From NCBI GenBank assembly GCA_963785415.1, contig CAWAVB010000001.1, forward strand, positions 1,973,479 to 2,037,478: 64,000 nt of DNA, given 5' to 3'. Made by a program: the position numbers and the translations under genes. Of this stretch, positions 1 to 7,284 are shown one piece after another. Each line of letters starts with the position of its first letter. Position 1 is the stretch's first letter. The stretch is from an uncultured Acidimicrobiaceae bacterium. Its GTDB lineage: Bacteria; Actinomycetota; Acidimicrobiia; Acidimicrobiales; Bog-793. The notes beneath the pieces are model-generated. The model had not been told where the DNA came from. It saw nothing but the letters and a program-made list of their open reading frames with translations, and searched no databases.

Positions 1-348
1 GATCGCTTCTGTCCGATCAACAGCGCCTACAGCGACCATCCGGCCGACGAGATCATGCAGCTAGGTGGGATCGAGGCATTTGACGGGTGCTTCCAGAATC
101 CCGACACCTACCAGGCTGGCGACGCAGAGATCTTTGTACCGTCGCTCGTTCCCCTCGTCTCGTTCCGAGGGCTGGTGCTCTGCGATGACCAGGCACGCGA
201 CTACTGGCTTCCTCTGTTTCGTGCAGCGCTCCGCGAAGTACCTGGTGACACGCTCGCCCCACCTAGGATCGACGTGGCTGTGCGATCAGGCCTCCGCTTT
301 CGCTTCCCCGGAGATTTCTCGCCAACGAGGAGGATTAGGAATGGCTGA
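1..348 (+). CDS. 5'-truncated DarT-like (DUF4433) ADP-ribosyltransferase family protein, C-terminal part
   Basis: Frame 1 is open from base 1: DRFCPINSAYSDHPADEIMQLGGIEAFDGCF...DAEIFVPSLVPLVSFRGLV. This resembles the DUF4433 pattern F-x-x-x-NAA...G-x-E-x-F...QAE-h-h-V-x-x-x-h-P, with the catalytic-type Glu retained. The stop overlaps the start of the downstream glycohydrolase. Confidence 0.5.
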   Translation, partial: DRFCPINSAYSDHPADEIMQLGGIEAFDGCFQNPDTYQAGDAEIFVPSLVPLVSFRGLVLCDDQARDYWLPLFRAALREVPGDTLAPPRIDVAVRSGLRFRFPGDFSPTRRIRNG

Positions 349-1807
349 GATGGCCTCAGCAACAGTGTTCGAGACGATCCCGCGTTCACCAGAGGAGCAG
401 TACTTCTCACGAGTTGCCGGGTCGTTGATCGGATCGGCCGCTGCGGACGCCCTCGGCTGGATCACCGAGTTCGTGCGCGGTCTGGACCACATGCGGAAAA
501 TCTACCGAACCGATCGCGTCACGGAGTACAGGTCGTGGCAGAAGACGAGCGGCGGAAGATTCAACGCGTATATCGACTACATCAGCGCGGGTGAGTACTC
601 GGACGATACTGAACTGACCCTTGCTGTCGCGCGGTCCCTGCGCCCGGACGGTTCAGTTGATGTACATCATCTTGCCAAGGCTGAGTTTCCGCTTTGGCTC
701 GACTACGCGTGGGGAGCGGGCTCCACCATTACTGCCGCGGCCCGATCGTTACAACGGAGATCGGCAGATTGGGACAACAACTTCTTCCGGTACAGGCACA
801 GGGGCCAAGAGCGGGACTACCGTGACGCCGGGGCTAACGGCGCCGCGATGAGGATCGCGCCGATCGCGTTGGCGAACATCGAGGACTCTACGCAGATGAG
901 TCTCGCTGTGTGGCAAGCCACGATCTGCACACACGGTCACCCACGAGCAATCCTGGGTGCCCTGCTTCTTGCCGAGGCAGTTAGACGATGTGCGAGCGAA
1001 GGTATAGAAGCAAGGACGACTCTCTTGAGGAGCCTTGAGAGCTTCGTGGAGGGTTGCGAGCCACCGACGACCAAGGACTTCGAATCGTGGCTGGATCGCT
1101 GGAATGCACCTGGGCGCGACTTTGCACAAGAGTGGGATGTCACTAAGGACGAGGTCCTCCTCGGCCTGAATGCGCTGCGCAGCGTCCGAGAACGCGATGA
1201 CGCTTACCGGCTGATGGACGACCTCGGCTGCTTCAGGCCGGACTCGAAGGGCTCGGGGACCGCGACCGTCCTCGCCGGCATAGCGATCTTCCTCGGTGCC
1301 GGCGACTCTTTTCGTGATGCAGTGCTGCTCGCTGTCAACGCGCTGGGCTCCGATACGGATACGATCGGCGGCTTTGTTGGCGCGATGTGTGGTGCCGCCC
1401 ACGGGTATGACGAGGTACCACCCGAGTGGGCGAGCATGATGCAGGACTACGACTACTTCATGCGGGTCGCGACCGAGGTAACGCGGATCGCGTGTCGATC
1501 TGGACTGGGTGGCGAGGCATTGCGCCCGTCGTCGACTGGTCGGAGGACCGATGTCCCAGACCTGATCCGGCGGCTCCGCAGCCATGACATCAGCCAGGGT
1601 GAGCGCGTATTTCATCCCCTCTTCGGAACTGGATTCGTGAGGTCAGTCGAGGCACAGCATCTGCGTCGTAAGGACGGCGCCAGCGTGGTATTTGCGTGGG
1701 TGATCTTTGATATCGGGCAAAGCTGCAAGTTCCGGTTCATGACGATCCCCTCGGCGAGACGCGCCGTGAGTGAGCGAACGCCGCCAGGGAGACCGCGTCT
1801 CTTCTAG
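341..1807 (+). CDS. ADP-ribosylglycohydrolase (ARH/DraG family) with C-terminal PcrA/UvrD-like Tudor domain
   Basis: ARH motifs: GSLIGSAAADALG, YSDDTELT, NGAAMRIAP, THGHP, GSDTDTIGGFVGAMCGA. RBS GAGGAGG precedes ATG 341. The tail reads GERVFHPLFGTGFVRSVE. Confidence 0.9.
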   Translation: MAEMASATVFETIPRSPEEQYFSRVAGSLIGSAAADALGWITEFVRGLDHMRKIYRTDRVTEYRSWQKTSGGRFNAYIDYISAGEYSDDTELTLAVARSLRPDGSVDVHHLAKAEFPLWLDYAWGAGSTITAAARSLQRRSADWDNNFFRYRHRGQERDYRDAGANGAAMRIAPIALANIEDSTQMSLAVWQATICTHGHPRAILGALLLAEAVRRCASEGIEARTTLLRSLESFVEGCEPPTTKDFESWLDRWNAPGRDFAQEWDVTKDEVLLGLNALRSVRERDDAYRLMDDLGCFRPDSKGSGTATVLAGIAIFLGAGDSFRDAVLLAVNALGSDTDTIGGFVGAMCGAAHGYDEVPPEWASMMQDYDYFMRVATEVTRIACRSGLGGEALRPSSTGRRTDVPDLIRRLRSHDISQGERVFHPLFGTGFVRSVEAQHLRRKDGASVVFAWVIFDIGQSCKFRFMTIPSARRAVSERTPPGRPRLF

Positions 1808-2113
1808 TTGATGAGATGACATGCCTCATGGATTGTTTCGAGGTTTCCTGTTGAGATTGGGCTGAACCGCACTGGATCTGGAGCAGGTCACTTTGATCCG
1901 TGAGAAGTGGATTCATGGAGGAAGAACCCATTCCCCTGGACGAGGGCGGAGGCCCGAGCACCTTGGTGCTCACACGGCTGGAGGCCGGAGCGCCCGAGTT
2001 CGGGGTGTTTTCTGTCCTGGAGTGAATCCTCGGTCGAGCACCCGGAGGGAGACACCAGGCCCCTCTCCGGAGCGTCTCCGAGTGACCTTCGGGGCGGAAC
2101 CCGAAGGTCTGTC

Positions 2114-2279
2114 ATCCCAAAAAAATCCCAAAAACTTTCCAAAACGTGCAAGATGGGTCCTCGCAGCACAGCGGGCAGAAGCGAGCAAAGTCCCAGGTAG
2201 AGCGGCAAATCTGGACAACGGTAGAGGACTGCAGAAAACGGGGCGGACAGGCCGAATAGGTCTCATAATCCGAAGATCG
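2114..2279 (+). repeat. Possible relic attachment-site arm ending in a tRNA-Met-like fragment
   Basis: Tandem ATCCCAAAAA (2114-2123, 2125-2134), then about 130 bp later CTCATAATCCGAAGATCG, which resembles a tRNA(CAT) anticodon arm plus variable loop. Confidence 0.35.
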
Positions 2280-2480
2280 AGCACTGCGATCGGCATGTAT
2301 CGGCAATGGAGGCTCATGCCGTGTGGCGACGAAATAGCGCCGCTGCCAGGACGATGGATGCGACAAGGAGGCCAGAGCACCAGATGGTGGCGACGAAGGG
2401 CGCGTTCCCGGTGGGGGTGTGAAGCAGGAGGCCCCGCCGAAGCTCGACTAGTTGTCGCAGCGGGTTCAGCGTGTACTGGC

Positions 2481-2630
2481 GACTACGGGCGCATGATCCG
2501 TGAGCTCATCGACCCCGACCGATTGCCAGGCGTCTGGGCTGCCGCATCCGCCGGCGCGTTCGAGGACGACGCCGGCGTGGAGGGCGAGTGCCGCTTTTGC
2601 CTCGAACGGTTCCTCGACGGCACCGATTGA
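2481..2630 (+). pseudogene. C-terminal remnant of a TetR/AcrR-family regulator
   Basis: DYGRMIRELIDPDRLPGVWAAASAGAFEDD...ECRFCLERFLDG resembles the actinobacterial TetR C-terminus (P..FP.L.....G.F....F.FGL.R.LDG). No HTH is present upstream. Confidence 0.55.
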
Positions 2631-2861
2631 AGGCATCGAGCCTCGCCGGCTGGCGAGTAGCGCCATCTTCGATCTTCGGTCGGCGAGACTAGAGGAGGAG
2701 CGCAACCTCCATCTCGTTAATCGTCGAGAAACGACAGAGGTCATGACCGTGGAGATGACCGAGCAAGAAGAGCGTGAGATACGCCAGTACGTCGAGTCAC
2801 AGACCGCCGATCGAGACAACGAAGTCCAGCTCGTACAGAGAGTGGGCAGACGGCGAATCGC

Positions 2862-4310
2862 GGTCAAGTCCGGCCGACTGGTGTACGACGACCACCACAC
2901 CAACCGTTGATCGTGTCCCTAGCTGACGGCCTCCAGCTCCGCCGTCTTGCCCACCTCCTTCACCTGTTCGATGTTGCCGGCAATCACGCGCATGCGAGCC
3001 TTGGCGAGGCTGTCAGGGCTCATGTAGCGGCGAGCCACGGCCCACTCGTCGTGCTGTTCGGCGAGGACGGCTCCGACGAGGCGGATGCACGCGGCCCGGT
3101 TCGGGAAGATGCCCACGACGTCGGTCCTCCTGCGGAGCTCTTTGTTGAGACGCTCCTGGGGGTTGTTGCTCCAGATCTGCTTCCAGTGCTCGGAGGGGAA
3201 CGAGGAGAAGGCCAGCAGGTCTGCCTCGGCGTCGACGAGGAACTCGGCGGTGACGGGGAACTGGCCCTCGAGCTGGTCGATGACCCGGTCGAACTGTGCT
3301 TTGACCTGGGTGGCGTCAGCCTGGGCGAAGATCGTCCGCACGAGGGTGGCGACCATCGCCTGGGCGGTCTTTGGTACTCGGGTGAGCAGATTGCGCATGG
3401 CATGGGTCCGGCACCGTTGCCAGGACGCACCGGTCAGCACGGCGCCGATCGCGTTCTTCAGCCCCTCGTGGGAATCGGAGACGACAAGGGCCACCCCGGA
3501 AAGGCCGCGGGCGACGAGGCCTCGCAAGAACGCCGTCCAGCCCGCTCCGTCCTCGGCACTTATGACGTCCACGCCGAGGATCTCCCGGTGGCCGTCGGCG
3601 TTCACGCCCGTGGCCACGACGGTCGCCAACGAGACGACGCGTCCGCCCTCGCGCACCTTGTGGAACAAGGCGTCCAACCAGAGATAGGTATAGGGCCCCT
3701 CGTCCAGGGGACGGTTGCGGAACTCGCCGACCTTTGAGTCGAGGTGCTTGGCGAGCTCGGAGACCTGGGACTTGGACATGCCGTCGATGCCCATCGATCT
3801 CACGAGGTCGTCGACTCTTCTCGTGGAGACGCCTTCGACATAGGCCTGGCAGATCACCGAGACGAGGGCCTGCTCGGCTCGCCGGCGTGGCTCCAACAGG
3901 CTCGGCAGATAGGAGCCTTGGCGAAGCTTTGGGATGTCGAGGCTGATCGTGCCGGCCCGTGTGTCCCAGCGCCGTGCCCGATGCCCGTTGCGACTGTTTC
4001 GGCGATCGTCGGACCTCTCGTTGTAGCCGGCGTTGCAGATGACATCGACGTCCGCGTCCATGAGCAGCTCAGCTGCCATCTTCACCATCTCTCCGAGCAG
4101 GTCGGAACCAGCTGGGCTCTCCAGGTACTTGCGCAGCAGCTCTGCCGCGCCCATGTTGTTGTTGACGGTCACCGCATCTTCTCCTTCGTGAACTTGTCGT
4201 TCTTGAAGGTTGGTGCGGTGGCTGTCGCGTCTGGGGGATGCTCGACGCGAAGCAGTGCTCAGCGCGAGTTGGTCACCTCGGGCTTGTACACCACTTTGGC
4301 GGACTCAACT
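2862..4310 (-). mobile_element. IS256-family insertion sequence (1449 bp)
   Basis: 8-bp target duplication CGAATCGC at 2854-2861 and 4311-4318. Imperfect 25-bp terminal inverted repeats, 18/25 matches (GGTCAAGTCCGGCCGACTGGTGTAC vs AGTTGAGTCCGCCAAAGTGGTGTAC). Confidence 0.95.
2919..4172 (-). CDS. IS256-family (mutator-type) DDE transposase
   Basis: Motifs RNGHRARRWDTRAG, IPKLRQGSY, GVSTRRV, YLWLDA, SDSHEGL, WQRCRTH, SNNPQERLNKELRRRT, GIFPN. Confidence 0.97.
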   Translation of the reverse strand: MTVNNNMGAAELLRKYLESPAGSDLLGEMVKMAAELLMDADVDVICNAGYNERSDDRRNSRNGHRARRWDTRAGTISLDIPKLRQGSYLPSLLEPRRRAEQALVSVICQAYVEGVSTRRVDDLVRSMGIDGMSKSQVSELAKHLDSKVGEFRNRPLDEGPYTYLWLDALFHKVREGGRVVSLATVVATGVNADGHREILGVDVISAEDGAGWTAFLRGLVARGLSGVALVVSDSHEGLKNAIGAVLTGASWQRCRTHAMRNLLTRVPKTAQAMVATLVRTIFAQADATQVKAQFDRVIDQLEGQFPVTAEFLVDAEADLLAFSSFPSEHWKQIWSNNPQERLNKELRRRTDVVGIFPNRAACIRLVGAVLAEQHDEWAVARRYMSPDSLAKARMRVIAGNIEQVKEVGKTAELEAVS

Positions 4311-5242
4311 CGAATCGCCGGCTACACCCATGACCTGTACGACGTGTGGATGTCGAAGGGCGATAGGTGGTGGGTTATCACCGGCATGACCAATCTTTAC
4401 GCCCAGGAAGATTTTCACGACCTCGATCAGGTGTTCACCTTCCACCTTGGCCTCTGTGCTCTGCTCCGCGAGAGATTCCTGATCGAGGCCGACGAGGAGT
4501 CGGCGGAGCACATCGGCCGCGCATGGCGCCGGTACGCGAAGGCGGTTGACGCCATGAGCGAAGCCGAGGAGGCCGAGGACTTCCAGGCCGTCGGAATTCG
4601 TTGCCGCGAGGCGCTGCTCGCACTCAACCGCGACCACGCGACGGCGCCATGGCTCCCAGGAACCGAGCCGCCTCCGAAGGTCGCTGACTTCGGGGGCTGG
4701 GTAGAACTCCATGCTCAAGCCTTGGCCCGCGGCAGGATGCGGGCCTACCTTCGGGACCTGGCCAGTAGGACCTGGGACATCGTGGTTTGGCTCCAGCACT
4801 ATGCAGATGCGACGGAGCTTGATGCCGAGATTGCCCTCGAGGCGACGGCGCACTTCCTTCGTATGTTCGCTCTGGCGGTTCGCAGGTACCAGCAAGGGTC
4901 CTTGCGGCGTTGCCCGTCTTGTGACTCATACCGACTTGCCCAGGACGGCGACGTCGAGGAGCACGACGGACTCCTCGGTTACGCGACTCACGACGTCTGC
5001 CTGGCCTGCGGTTGGACCTCCGAGCAAACATTCGAGCCCTACTCAGCTGAATGGTTCGGGCGGGCCACGGAATATCTCGAAGCTGACCCAGTGGACCTCA
5101 ACGCGATCGGCGCCGATGATGCTCTCGGACGGTCCGGCTACCCCCGTTCGACACGTGGCGGCGCCTCCGATCTGGACCGCTGACACACGTTCACAGATCT
5201 GGGGTGTCTCAACCTGCGGGCATATCGCGCGGGACATCCTCG

Positions 5243-5369
5243 TGTAGCCATTTGTGTAGCCCAGCGCTGAGATCTGGCCAGACGCACTTGGACGCTTATA
5301 GGTCTAGACACCTGTTCAGAGCTGCTCTGTGGACTCTGATGGACGCCCGGATACCCGTTCGATTTCTCT
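5243..5369 (+). repeat. Degenerate 127-bp direct repeat, copy 1 (att-arm-like)
   Basis: Ungapped alignment to 18748-18874: first 23 bp identical (TGTAGCCATTTGTGTAGCCCAGC), about 95/127 identical overall by manual count. Confidence 0.85.
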
Positions 5370-5447
5370 AGGGGTTCCATCCCCAGACCCAAGCGTTTCG
5401 TACCCTGCCGAGCACACCGTCCCCGGTCAGCTTTCCAGTCATCGGCA

Positions 5448-6644
5448 TTACGAGGTGCCGTGCCTGTGAACGATCGACAGATCCTCCTCTGCAAGCGCCT
5501 CCTCTTCTTCGTCCGGGATCGCAATCGTCGGGTGGAATAGCTGCTGGGCGATGACCGTCGGGACGAACGCAGACAGGATCACGACCGTGACCAGCTCGGT
5601 GTACTGGGTCTGGTCGATGAGGTGGTGGGTCAGTCCGAAGAGCGCAGCGATTGAGCCGAACGTCAGTCCTGTCGCCATTAGCAGCGTTGTGTAGGCGCGT
5701 TCCCGGTTTGGGATCCGGAACGATGCCGACGCCGGCCAAACGCCGATGAGCTTCGACAGCATCTTGACTGCGAACAGTGCGCCGATGATCCCGGCCCCTG
5801 TGAAGAGGGCGGGTGCTGAAATGAGGGTTCCCGCTCGAAGGAAGAAGAACGGCGTGAGCAGAGCGAACGAGATCGTGCGGATTCTGTCGAGGATGACCCG
5901 ATCGTGCATGAAGACCCCGGCCACGACAAGGCCTGCCACGTAGGCGGGCAGGACCGCCTCGCTCCCGGCTGCTGTCGCGAGCCCTCCAAGCCCCAGTAGC
6001 ACGACAAGCAGGAACTTGACCTCTGGCTCGCTGATTCGATGCCCGAAGCGTGCGATGACGAGCCGCATCGCCCGGGGCAGTACGAGCATCGAAACCGCCG
6101 TGGTGACGGCGAAGGCCAGGAGCATCCACCCGTAGGTCGCGAAGAACCCGCCGAGTGCCATCACCGTTCCGAGGTCGGTTACGAAACACGCCGCCAGGAT
6201 GAGCTTGCCGATGTCCTCCCGGTTCAGGCCCGTCTCCACCATCACGGCGTAGACAACCGCAACCGATGTTGTGCTGAGGGCAATGCCTCCGATCTCCGCC
6301 GCCTGCAGATGCCAATCGAGGGCGAACCTGCAAATCGCGAAGACACCGGCGAATGGGAGCGCGAACGAGGTCGTGCCGATCACGAGACTCGCTTTCCAAT
6401 GCCGCTTCAGTGAAACCGGGTCGATCTCGGCGCCGGCGAGGAAGGTCAACAAGAGAGACCCAATGCTCGCAAGGAAGGTCGTGAACGCGGTCTGGTCCAC
6501 GTGTTCCTTGATTCCGGGGATGTTGCCTACCACGGCTCCGACGAGTATCTCGACGAGCGCCACCGAAATGCCAACCCGAACACTGATGAACGACGCGAGA
6601 AATGCCATGCCCAGCCAGATCGCAGCGATGTAGTAGATGTTCAC
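5448..6644 (-). CDS. Cation:proton antiporter (CPA2/Na+/H+ exchanger family)
   Basis: Polytopic membrane protein with FLAGAEID, LSTTSVAVV, AACFVTDLG and TPFFFLRAG motifs. RBS GAAGGGGG before GTG. Confidence 0.9.
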   Translation of the reverse strand: MNIYYIAAIWLGMAFLASFISVRVGISVALVEILVGAVVGNIPGIKEHVDQTAFTTFLASIGSLLLTFLAGAEIDPVSLKRHWKASLVIGTTSFALPFAGVFAICRFALDWHLQAAEIGGIALSTTSVAVVYAVMVETGLNREDIGKLILAACFVTDLGTVMALGGFFATYGWMLLAFAVTTAVSMLVLPRAMRLVIARFGHRISEPEVKFLLVVLLGLGGLATAAGSEAVLPAYVAGLVVAGVFMHDRVILDRIRTISFALLTPFFFLRAGTLISAPALFTGAGIIGALFAVKMLSKLIGVWPASASFRIPNRERAYTTLLMATGLTFGSIAALFGLTHHLIDQTQYTELVTVVILSAFVPTVIAQQLFHPTIAIPDEEEEALAEEDLSIVHRHGTS

Positions 6645-6711
6645 GCTTACCCCCTTCTCGGCCGGCAGGGGGTGCGGAATTAGCGCGCGCCTACCAGCAG
6701 CTTCCTTCTCT

Positions 6712-6769
6712 GGTAGAAGCCATCAGTCGAGCGGCGCTCGACGATTCGAGGGGCGGGCCTCATCGCGCC
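6712..6769 (-). promoter_or_regulatory. Fluoride (crcB) riboswitch 1, upstream of the antiporter
   Basis: Minus strand GCGATGAGGCCCGC-CCCTCGAATC-GTCGAGC gcc GCTCGAC-TGATGGCTTCTAC, with a GAGGCC/GGCTTC pseudoknot. A CTACCAG...CTGGTAG hairpin follows and a TAACAT -10-like hexamer precedes it. Confidence 0.85.
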
Positions 6770-7284
6770 TCCTCGGATGTTATCGGGACTCATCGACCCC
6801 CAACTCGTGCCCTGTTGCCAAATGCCCATTTGGGGGAGCCACGCTCAGCGGGCTTGAGCGGTTGCCACGAGGAAGCGAATATCGGCCGTCCTTCGGCACC
6901 ACGACCTCCATGGCCGAAAACGCCAGTCGGAGATTGGTGACGGCGGCTCCCCGACACGGCGAAACTGCCTTTTGAAGTCGTGTTTGTCTTTGCGATCCTG
7001 CAGCGAAAAATGCGTCCAGCTCCAGGGCATCCGTTTTGCTAATCAGGCGTCAAGGAACGCTTTGCGCTATTCGCTTGCGAGTGGATCGAGACGGCGAATC
7101 GCGTCTCGCGGTTGAGGTATTCAGGGCCTTCGGGGCCGCGCCGCCATCTCGGCGAAGCCGTCGGTGAAGGTGTGCACTTCTCGCGCGTCCTTTGCTTCCG
7201 CCTGGTGCGACGAACTCTTCATGGCCCGGACGTCGAGCCGGATCGTGAGTCGCCTGGCGTCCAGAAGGCGATCCCGAGGCCTCC

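Follow-up and report, generated by a model that had tools for sequence, protein, structure and literature searches.

Can a toxin of the DarT family be paired with an ADP-ribosylglycohydrolase (ARH) as its antitoxin? The antitoxin folds established biochemically for DarT are the macrodomain and NADAR, and to our knowledge removal of base-linked ADP-ribose has been shown for no enzyme with an ARH fold. The question is raised by the left edge of the window, i.e., the whole stretch of 64,000 nucleotides that was analyzed (G000:C1:1973479-2037478). A preliminary description had noted an ORF with DUF4433-like motifs that runs in from the edge and overlaps the start of a complete ARH gene inside a genomic island, and had proposed a non-canonical DarT-like toxin with ARH as its partner.

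Gene layout at the window edge

The left flank of the window was fetched (L002), and it revealed that the edge ORF (window 1-348, 115 aa, open at the 5' edge) comprises the last 115 codons of a gene of 218 aa. The complete toxin ORF has a GTG start, begins 308 nt left of the window, and spans L002:14692-15348, which is G000:C1:1973170-1973826. Its TGA (window 346-348) overlaps the start of the complete ARH gene, the ATG of which is at window position 341 (sequence ATGGCTGA), and thus the gene overlap was confirmed. The features are listed below with their window positions; A1 is the alignment of the toxin clade, and A2 that of the ARH proteins.

1-348, + strand: DarT-like ADP-ribosyltransferase gene, 3' part (115 codons and TGA); ORF lists, AF2, DarT fold, alignment A1
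19-21, + strand: N110 codon (AAC); invariant in A1, profile alignment to 8baq
127-129, + strand: E146 codon (GAG), putative catalytic ART glutamate, motif AEIFV; invariant in A1
327-334, + strand: Shine-Dalgarno-like GAGGAGGA, 6 nt 5' of the ARH start codon, within the end of the toxin gene; sequence reading
341-1807, + strand: ARH-family (ADP-ribosylglycohydrolase) gene, 488 aa, putative antitoxin; PF03747, DraG 2woe, partner in 12/12 loci
344-418, + strand: N-terminal arm of ARH, aa 2-26, predicted toxin contact; interface list of the complex prediction
419-1426, + strand: catalytic domain of ARH, aa 27-362; Pfam envelope
599-610, + strand: S87-D88-D89-T90, ARH metal-binding motif 1; invariant in 9/9 sequences of A2, aligns with DraG TDDT
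1352-1363, + strand: D338-T339-D340-T341, ARH metal-binding motif 2; invariant in 9/9 sequences of A2, aligns with DraG DaDT
1406-1534, + strand: post-catalytic helix and linker, aa 356-398, with invariant QDYDY and GG.A..P, main predicted toxin-binding surface; alignment A2, complex prediction
1556-1753, + strand: putative C-terminal SH3/Tudor/KOW-like beta-barrel of ARH, aa 406-471

In the source annotation the toxin gene (P0001) has only 173 aa. This short call, and also the location between IS elements, would fit a remnant that has decayed or become inactive and no longer has a function. However, both reading frames are intact, and tblastn showed that the 45 N-terminal residues left out of the 173-aa call are conserved in 11 of the 12 loci related to this one. 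In addition, neither protein shows any change at its catalytic residues across homologues that share identities of 44-78% for the toxin and 51-70% for ARH. A remnant is, therefore, regarded as very improbable.

The gene pair upstream of the toxin encodes a metallophosphoesterase and an SMC/SbcC-like ATPase, and the latter is the nearest neighbor, with a gap of 226 nt. A macrodomain or NADAR gene just upstream, which would have spoken against ARH as the partner, was looked for, but none was found upstream of the toxin, and Pfam detected neither domain in either neighbor. The nuclease/ATPase pair was also considered as part of the module, and it was dropped because SbcD/SbcC-like neighbors were found in none of the 12 related loci. 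Upstream of the toxin gene there is a 130-nt repeat, which was first considered as a tmRNA fragment. This reading was rejected, as ARAGORN and Rfam called nothing and the repeat did not align with the real tmRNA of the genome at C1:422096-422448. One promoter-like site was found versus 0.5 expected, which alone has no statistical meaning.

The toxin and the DarT superfamily

The DUF4433-like motifs that had been reported could not be verified on the visible fragment, for which Pfam yielded no family at E ≤ 1; the assignment to the DarT superfamily held via fold and profile searches with the full protein. Even the full toxin reached only 17.3 bits with PF14487, under the cut-off of 22.5 and restricted to residues 18-58, and it fell short of the NCBIfam toxin_DarT model (11.1 versus 150 required). 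A precomputed PF14487 match exists for just 2 of the 22 close homologues, and every naming source has "hypothetical protein" for them. This toxin branch escapes annotation by Pfam and NCBIfam, and, because the PADLOC DarT model yields just a weak match (E 4.8e-4), it also marks a gap in the annotation of defence systems.

The structure search that had been recommended gave a clearer result. The AF2 model of the complete toxin (pLDDT 92.7, pTM 0.90) was used for Foldseek, and the best eight matches were all DarT proteins (E 5.8e-9 to 2.7e-5), i.e., the predicted fold is a DarT-type ART fold. In the ESM Atlas, 28 of the 30 nearest clusters were DarT. The A1 profile detected 298 representatives at E ≤ 1e-3. 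Among 117 aligned relatives 75 had a PF14487 match at E ≤ 1e-3, and it is on these transitive matches that the profile-based membership of the toxin rests. Three of the 117 are NADAR fusions, and all three are more distant relatives (P0044, P0054, P0067). With the sequences of the PDB, the A1 profile had a marginal match to DarT1 alone (E 0.0017), while a profile of 40 sequences (A5) matched DarT1 8baq (E 9.8e-9), 7omu (1.2e-3) and 7yk3 (4.5e-3). A search of 1645 candidates detected no longer, fused form of the toxin, a negative result that carries little weight. Taken together, the predicted fold and the profile matches place the protein in the DarT superfamily. The proposal would have been refuted by a full protein without an ART/DUF4433 fold or by a macrodomain or NADAR antitoxin just upstream, and neither check spoke against it.

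H19 and E146 are present in at least 90% of the 117 sequences of the broad family, and these are the N-terminal His and the putative catalytic Glu of the H-Y-E class. In the chains of 7omu and 7yk3, E146 is aligned to an Ala at the same motif position, which we take to be an E-to-A mutation made for crystallization. Substitutions of this type are stated for DarT1 (E152A) and for the T. aquaticus enzyme (E160A) in the accessible text of PMC11543638.

Further residues bear on the type of DarT. In an HMM-based profile alignment, as opposed to superposed coordinates, N110, M80, K62 and E64 of the toxin align with N104, M71, R52 and D54 of DarT1. N110 is invariant in the clade, and its counterpart N104 of E. 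coli C7 DarT1 is described as the guanine-coordinating residue, which corresponds to His119 in DarT2 (PMC11543638, accessible text). The replacement of R52 by Lys counts against a DarT1-type reading. In the DarT tree, the ARH-paired clade and all three NADAR fusions are on one side of a well-supported split (FastTree 99; IQ-TREE SH-aLRT 99.8 with 70 rows). Sequence, modeled structure and tree thus place the toxin nearer to the guanine-specific DarT1 than to the thymine-specific DarT2.

The ARH protein and its pairing with the toxin

The second protein (488 aa) matched PF03747 with an E value of 6.9e-47 (160.9 bits, cut-off 26.2), and among the proteins of solved structure DraG (2woe, E 8.2e-23) comes nearest to it in sequence. 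Together with the SDDT and DTDT metal-binding motifs, which are invariant in all nine A2 sequences, this identifies it as a member of the ARH family. It resembles DraG, both metal-binding motifs are intact, and a putative SH3/Tudor-like barrel is added at its C-terminus. For this tail Pfam had no family at threshold (the best was Cap17-like_N, matched by 3 of 8 members, at best with E 0.0038), no match was found among the PDB sequences, and a tail profile (A3) did not detect the tails of the ARHs of loci L018, L019 and L021. Among 120 listed ARH homologues, three have an added C-terminal LuxR/GerE HTH, which was counted as an antitoxin-like trait.

DraG and Tri1 act on arginine-ADP-ribose in proteins. 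The scores of the ARH with the NCBIfam models are 70.6 bits for DraG and 53.2 bits for Tri1, far under both equivalog cut-offs (337 and 490, respectively). In the DraT/DraG and Tre1/Tri1 systems, the ARH-fold eraser or immunity protein is also encoded beside its ART, and it is these two proteins, DraG and Tri1, that the ARH of the locus resembles most. The pair could, thus, be a protein-arginine writer/eraser or toxin/immunity pair of this kind, in which a DarT-fold enzyme has switched from DNA and ARH removes Arg-ADP-ribose. The arginine specificity of the best characterized relatives would be in line with this, as would the report of Lu et al. 2025 that the ARH-like SCO5809 and human ARHs fail to reverse guanosine-ADP-ribosylation on RNA and that only NADARs succeed (PMC11833690, accessible text). 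The transferases of those systems are, however, of the R-S-E type (cholera-toxin-like) and modify protein arginine, while that of the locus has the DarT fold and is of the H-Y-E type. An arginine target is considered unlikely. Improbable, too, is an RNA target (base or 2'-OH/phosphate), as for RNA-directed ART toxins and enzymes of the Tpt1/KptA type, in which case the ARH would reverse RNA ADP-ribosylation.

A survey of the adjacency of the two genes covered 12 related loci, three of which are cut by contig ends, and in all 12 the DarT-like gene is directly followed by an ARH homologue. Three near-duplicate pairs are included (L006/L007 and L004/L008 with identical junctions, L009/L013 with identical downstream sequences), and therefore about nine cases are independent. 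The pairing is not due to chance. The ARH start overlaps the toxin stop in eight loci and abuts it in two, and in the last two the junction is broken or odd. Thus, the ARH partner is strictly conserved and, judging from the junctions, mostly translationally coupled with the toxin gene. No conserved third gene was found downstream of ARH in the related loci, no conservation of the spacer at window 1808-2918 was detected in them, and the pair is accompanied by no gene for a macrodomain, a NADAR protein or a helicase. As to the helicase, two DarH-like proteins were used for tblastn, and neither matched the window, L002 or any of the 12 related loci.

A complex of toxin and ARH was predicted with an ipSAE of 0.89, while the best control had 0.00. 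Among 80 solved complexes, 58 attain a value of 0.89, as do 2 among 110 mismatched pairs, a calibration that holds only roughly because self-built alignments were used. The contacts agreed to at least 95% between runs, and the partner pLDDT was at least 86. The interface is predicted to include toxin residues 135-143 and 183-210 and ARH residues 2-26 and 356-398, and it matches motifs that are invariant in the clade and specific to it, i.e., W78, F205 and P206 of the toxin, and QDYDY (368-372) and R375 to E379 of ARH. The prediction supports a direct binding of ARH to the toxin, and, together with the 12 loci, it favors the proposed role of ARH as the partner of the DarT-like toxin.

Island context, known systems and proposed mechanism

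The view that the pair is part of a genomic island was also supported. The GC content is 0.59-0.62 over L002 10.5-18 kb, versus 0.65-0.70 upstream and 0.70-0.74 at window 34-64 kb. IS21 istA/istB genes are located upstream of the pair and an IS256/Mutator transposase downstream, and a DNA search did not detect the 6.2-kb block in eight genomes of the same genus. In a sample of 401 genomes from the phylum the pair was present in two, including its own genome.

The same biochemistry might also serve the control of host replication or growth, as proposed for M. tuberculosis DarTG, or the pair might be a purely selfish addiction element. DarTG is reported to regulate growth via ssDNA ADP-ribosylation (PMC12170906, accessible text). 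In addition, the plasmid and phage collections contained no tblastn match to the toxin at E ≤ 0.1, the A1 profile detected no toxin homologue in IMG/VR, and the neighbors of the scanned related loci are mixed, with housekeeping genes among them. However, the rare and patchy distribution, the IS flanks and the low GC content are more in line with a mobile accessory module than with a core regulator; transposases adjoin also two of the four scanned related loci (L007, L010, L011, L012). Moreover, the related DarHTG system of E. coli defends against phages (PMC13069673, accessible text). Growth control or addiction is, therefore, judged to be distinctly unlikely, and the context suggests a possible role in defence, against which the weak PADLOC DarT match counts.

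The pairing was called non-canonical, and this is valid insofar as no macrodomain or NADAR protein is involved; it is not without precedent. DarHTG of E. coli (Liu-DS3) contains a DarT together with an ARH3-like antitoxin, "DarG3" (Nucleic Acids Res, April 2026; PMC13069673). As far as the accessible text of that article goes, a UvrD-family helicase in the operon, DarH, is required for phage defence, and the role of DarG3 rests on structural similarity and the failed isolation of a mutant, with no assay. Among the entries and passages covered by the literature searches, no other paper pairing DarT with an ARH was found. The locus resembles DarHTG in having a DarT-family toxin followed by an ARH-fold antitoxin, a likeness by architecture only, and it differs in that the helicase gene is missing. 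The three-gene form was found in two other loci, the IMG/VR contig L019 and the G290 locus L021, which encodes a UvrD-like helicase (469 aa), a DarT (61 bits) and an ARH (562 aa). The ARH of the locus has 30% identity to the L021 ARH over 466 aa (E 1e-31). The similarity of the toxin to the helicase-linked DarT is marginal (E 0.005), and the main split in the DarT tree separates the two.

Compared with DarTG1 (E. coli C7, PDB 8baq; Mol Cell 2023, PMC11543638), an ARH is found instead of the NADAR antitoxin, R52 and D54 of DarT1 are replaced by K62 and E64, and the identity is about 18%. Binding of DarG1 to its toxin is not shown in the accessible text of PMC11825919, unlike the binding predicted here. 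DarTG2 (DarT2 and the macrodomain DarG of Thermus and M. tuberculosis; PDB 7omy, 7yk3) has another antitoxin fold and His119 as the base contact instead of Asn, and the relationship is more distant.

Taken together, the pair probably forms a DarTG-type module of two genes, self-contained and horizontally mobile, with a DNA-modifying DarT-family toxin and an ARH-fold antitoxin. The first gene would encode a divergent mono-ADP-ribosyltransferase with NAD+ as its substrate and a nucleobase of single-stranded DNA as its target. This base would most likely be guanine, given that the enzyme comes nearest to DarT1 and that the Asn at the base-contact position is kept. The DraG-like hydrolase encoded by the coupled second gene would clamp the toxin via its N-terminal arm and the helix and linker behind its catalytic domain. 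The clamp is predicted to touch the loop that directly precedes the catalytic Glu, and therefore access of the substrate should be blocked. In addition, the antitoxin would hydrolyze stray ADP-ribose adducts in a metal-dependent reaction, and its Tudor-like barrel may tether it to nucleic acid or to the transcription or repair machinery. After loss or titration of the antitoxin, e.g., during phage infection, the toxin would be free to block replication.

A more far-reaching version is put forward tentatively. The ARH fold might have been recruited independently as a third eraser of ADP-ribosylation on DNA nucleobases and, in this lineage, might have replaced a NADAR beside a DarT1-type, guanine-N2-modifying toxin. 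The protein would at the same time be a stoichiometric inhibitor that clamps the substrate loop, with the Tudor-like module placing it on DNA or on the transcription or repair machinery. As the N2 amino group of guanine belongs to a guanidine-like unit, a DraG/ARH1-like hydrolase of arginine-ADP-ribose could have been adapted to guanine-ADP-ribose. If this is true, it would overturn the finding that NADARs are the sole reversers of guanosine ADP-ribosylation.

An ARH-type antitoxin had been proposed once before, in PMC13069673 for a helicase-dependent three-gene system and without enzymology. The locus and the approximately nine independent cases indicate that a pairing with ARH also occurs in the form of a minimal, helicase-free module of two genes, and ARH partners occur on both sides of the DarT tree. 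The module may, thus, be a simpler system for asking whether an ARH can cleave base-linked ADP-ribose and how antitoxin folds are swapped onto DarT lineages.

Structure and conservation of the toxin/ARH pair

The ORF that is open at the left edge of the window stops at position 348, and in the ORF list only 115 aa of it were visible. The gene is complete in the 15 kb of upstream DNA that were retrieved (L002). The two genes of the pair are:

L002:14692-15348, whole toxin ORF, 218 aa, GTG start, with a GAGAGG run a few bases 5' of the start
window 341-1807, ARH (ADP-ribosylglycohydrolase) gene, 488 aa, PF03747 at residues 27-362 (E 6.9e-47)

The toxin TGA (window 346-348) falls within the first ARH codons, the ATG of which is at window 341, and thus the overlap that had been noted in the preliminary description is real. 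The junction is ATGGCTGA, and a Shine-Dalgarno-like GAGGAGGA was read from the sequence 6 nt 5' of the ARH ATG. The source annotation of the toxin gene comprises 173 aa, and many homologues have likewise been called from an internal Met. In the homologue alignment A1 the N-terminal 20-45 residues are conserved, and in 11/12 loci the tblastn match of the toxin begins at residue 3-5, and, thus, sequence conservation indicates that the 218-aa form is the real one.

Twelve related loci were compared, two from species genomes (Acidimicrobiaceae and Acidimicrobiia MAGs) and ten from metagenomes. The survey of how often an ARH gene adjoins the toxin gene gave a uniform result, i.e., an ARH homologue (52-71% identical) begins directly after the toxin gene in 12/12 loci, and it is cut off by the contig end in three of them. 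An ATG, GTG or TTG start of the ARH overlaps the toxin stop in eight loci, typically as ATGA, and abuts it in two. Frame breaks were seen within the toxin of L013 and near the ARH end of L012. The loci include three near-duplicate pairs (L006/L007 and L004/L008, with identical junctions, and L009/L013, with identical downstream sequence), and therefore the twelve loci represent about nine independent lineages. In the related loci neither a conserved third gene downstream of the ARH nor an SbcCD-like or UvrD-like gene beside the pair was found. The neighbours in the four loci that were scanned are a DNA methylase, IS1595 and IS481 transposases, a peptidase and a tRNA synthetase. A fused toxin-ARH protein was not found, which is weak evidence.

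Relationship of the toxin to DarT enzymes

Two types of DarT systems are established, DarTG1 with a NADAR antitoxin and guanine as target, and DarTG2 with a macrodomain antitoxin and thymine as target (PMC11825919, PMC11543638, PMC12945103). DUF4433-like motifs had been proposed for the visible toxin fragment, but they are not recovered by any family model, and the 115-aa piece matches 0 families. The full toxin is also below the PF14487 threshold (17.3 versus 22.5 bits, N-terminal 40 residues only), its match to the PADLOC DarT model is sub-threshold (E 4.8e-4), and the cut-off of NCBIfam toxin_DarT is not reached (11.1 versus 150 bits). A word-seeded search with 351 candidates yielded only 22 homologues at E<=1e-3, which are called 'hypothetical protein' where the source gives a name, and a precomputed PF14487 match exists for 2/22.

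The fold of the full protein was analyzed with an AlphaFold2 model based on the 19 sequences of A1 (pLDDT 92.7, pTM 0.90). DarT entries made up all of the best eight Foldseek matches in the PDB (E 5.8e-9 to 2.7e-5). The next structural family was Tpt1/KptA with a score of at most 8.2, and cholera/pertussis-type toxins scored about 6.

When 1.84 billion representatives were searched with a profile, 298 proteins had E<=1e-3, of which 104 had E<=1e-10 and 19 had E<=1e-30. From the best 150 of the 298, 117 longer matches were aligned. PF14487 was detected at E<=1e-3 in 75/117 of these relatives, and three are NADAR-DarT fusions. Only H19 and E146 are retained in at least 90% of the 117 relatives; they correspond to the His and Glu that characterise ARTs of the H-Y-E class.

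A broader profile of 40 sequences (A5) matched the PDB chain of DarT1, 8baq, with E 9.8e-9, and 7omu and 7yk3 with E 1.2e-3 and 4.5e-3. The index of the 8baq chain equals the numbering of PMC11543638 plus 1, as confirmed on eight residues (F18, R35, N48, D49, R52, D54, M71, F72). In the A5 profile alignment the invariant N110 of the toxin aligns with N104 of DarT1, M80 aligns with M71, and K62 and E64 stand opposite R52 and D54, and in the 7omu and 7yk3 chains the residue opposite E146 is the Ala of the motif AxxLV. In DarT1, E152 is described as the ART glutamate, N104 as the base-coordinating residue (His119 in DarT2), and M71 and R52 as essential (Schuller et al. 2023, PMC11543638). DarT-domain trees were calculated with FastTree (135 rows) and with IQ-TREE in quick mode (hand-picked 70-row subset), and the main split was identical. 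The ARH-paired toxin clade is on the same side of this split as all three NADAR fusions (support 99; SH-aLRT 99.8). From the evidence of fold, profile, residues and trees we therefore conclude that the toxin belongs to the DarT superfamily as a divergent member and is closer to DarT1 than to DarT2.

The ARH partner and the predicted complex

DraG is the nearest relative of the ARH domain (2woe, E 8.2e-23). Against NCBIfam it scored 70.6 bits with TIGR02662 (DraG) and 53.2 bits with Tri1, both far under the equivalog cut-offs. In 9/9 aligned homologues both metal-binding motifs, S87-D88-D89-T90 and D338-T339-D340-T341, are unchanged. We know of no ARH that cleaves a base-linked ADP-ribose adduct. 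Because the ARH is nearest to arginine-specific enzymes, protein arginine stays alive as a rival target of the toxin. For the DarT/ARH reading, the same arginine-like chemistry suggests a possible route to the cleavage of guanine-ADPr, since guanine N2 is part of a guanidine-like group, an analogy of our own. Speaking against this chemistry, guanosine-ADPr on RNA was reported to be reversed by NADARs only, and an ARH3-like Streptomyces protein and human ARHs were inactive on it, according to Lu et al. 2025 (PMC11833690).

Outside of the catalytic domain the ARH has three conserved pieces, i.e., an N-terminal arm, a helix plus linker with an invariant QDYDY, and a C-terminal module of about 65 residues. 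Folded alone (8 sequences), the tail had a pLDDT of 76 overall and of 81-95 in 10-residue blocks over tail residues 21-80, and it is predicted to be an SH3/Tudor/KOW-type barrel. The structure matches were equally ranked and only moderate (best Foldseek E 0.08), and neither a Pfam match nor a PDB sequence match was obtained for the tail; a UvrD/CarD-like Tudor is a lead only.

The ARH-plus-tail family has at least 1682 matches at E<=1e-3 (8000 scored) and is larger than the toxin clade retrieved. The 120 matches listed all contain PF03747, and most have 465-520 aa and at least 40% identity. Three of these 120 (P0179, P0180, P0185; 582-588 aa) carry an additional C-terminal LuxR/GerE HTH (PF00196), and an HTH is a common trait of autoregulating antitoxins. 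The contig of P0185 has the same size (2697) as that of the toxin homologue P0015, and thus P0185 is probably part of a toxin/ARH pair.

The complex was predicted with alignments that we built ourselves, in three runs and with three controls. The score was 0.89 in the three runs versus 0.00 for the best control; 0.89 is reached by 58/80 solved complexes and by 2/110 mismatched pairs. The runs share at least 95% of the contacts, with partner pLDDT of at least 86. The predicted interface joins ARH 2-26, 356-398 and 457-459 with toxin 75-82, 135-143 and 183-210. Toxin 135-143 is the loop directly before E146, and the equivalent region of DarT1 has been named the substrate-binding ARTT loop (PMC11543638). 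The predicted interface contains the invariant motifs of both proteins that are specific to the clade, and the model thus supports that the toxin would be neutralised by direct ARH binding, besides hydrolysis.

Genomic island and helicase-containing relatives

The surroundings of the pair contain the following features:

L002:7865-10294, IS21 istA/istB, upstream side of the locus
L002:10618-14465, metallophosphoesterase (393 aa) and SMC/SbcC-like ATPase (950 aa), between IS21 and toxin gene
window 2919-4172, (-), intact IS256/Mutator-family transposase (PF00872, E 6e-133), about 1.1 kb downstream of the ARH
window 4305-5183, (+), 292-aa ORF just past the transposase, no Pfam family at E<=1e-3
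C1:~4974-5105 (L026:1975-2146, another stretch of the contig), other copy of the spacer element described below, followed by an IstB remnant

The GC content is 0.59-0.62 at the locus versus 0.70-0.74 in the window's right half. It is about 0.60-0.69 over window positions ~1-34000 and 0.70-0.75 over 34000-64000, and because it is low across the left half, the accessory region may reach well past the pair. The block was not detected by DNA in the eight same-genus genomes searched. Among 401 genomes sampled from the phylum, the toxin profile was found in two (the source genome itself and a contig-end fragment in G215), and the ARH profile at 1e-40 also in two. As an accessory module, the toxin/ARH pair is both rare and mobile.

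The ATPase has weak PADLOC matches to mad3, LmuB and AriA (E 1e-11 to 1e-9). The metallophosphoesterase and the ATPase share the low GC content of the island and adjoin the pair in none of the related loci; together they may form a distinct module for defence or repair. The spacer between ATPase and toxin has 226 nt and contains a sigma-70-like site, TTGACA-17-TATGTT (L002:14642-14670; one found versus 0.5 expected), the -10 element of which is covered by a 5-4-5 palindrome. A stretch of 132 nt in the spacer (L002:14472-14603), the end of which lies 398 nt to the left of window position 1, shares 75-77% identity with a non-coding element that is present elsewhere in the source genome and in the same-genus genomes G404, G405 and, in shorter form, G402. 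Full copies terminate in a tRNA-like T-arm and ACCA. The element gave neither an ARAGORN nor an Rfam call and did not align to the tmRNA of the source genome; it may be an integration-site remnant or a novel small RNA. A 98-nt 'tRNA-Arg(tcg)' called by ARAGORN (L002:8032-8129, (-)) lies within the istA reading frame and is probably a false positive. Between ARH and transposase (window 1808-2918, about 1.1 kb) only unconvincing ORFs and no similarity to the related loci were found, and an Rfam scan past the ARH up to window 2950 revealed no family above threshold.

Two operons that combine a helicase with DarT and ARH were found:

L021:3462-7248, (-), in genome G290 (same order as the source genome); helicase 5836-7248, DarT 5147-5839, ARH 3462-5150
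L019:281-4043, (+), on an IMG/VR contig, viral or proviral

Both have 4-nt overlaps and encode a UvrD-like helicase of about 469 aa, a DarT (PF14487, 61 bits) and an ARH of 562-565 aa, and thus have the same three-gene architecture as the E. coli system 'DarHTG', which was described in April 2026 and is phage-protective (PMC13069673). A mutant of its ARH3-like DarG3 was unobtainable, and the excerpted text of that study describes no hydrolase assay for DarG3 (PMC13069673). Between the ARH described here and that of L021 there is 30% identity over 466 residues (E 1e-31), whereas the toxin barely matches the L021 DarT (E 0.005), and the two are on opposite sides of the DarT tree. By these comparisons, the module is a variant without the helicase that joins a related ARH to a DarT of another lineage.

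Taken together, the toxin/ARH arrangement was confirmed, and its interpretation as a DarT/ARH pair is supported at the computational level. The central idea of the preliminary description, an ARH as non-canonical antitoxin of a DarT, therefore has a precedent in the published DarHTG with DarG3 (PMC13069673). The contributions of the locus are a DarT-ARH module of two genes that has no helicase, a clade of putative toxins that is overlooked by current family models, a predicted clamp-type toxin-antitoxin interface, and a putative antitoxin with a predicted additional Tudor-like domain.
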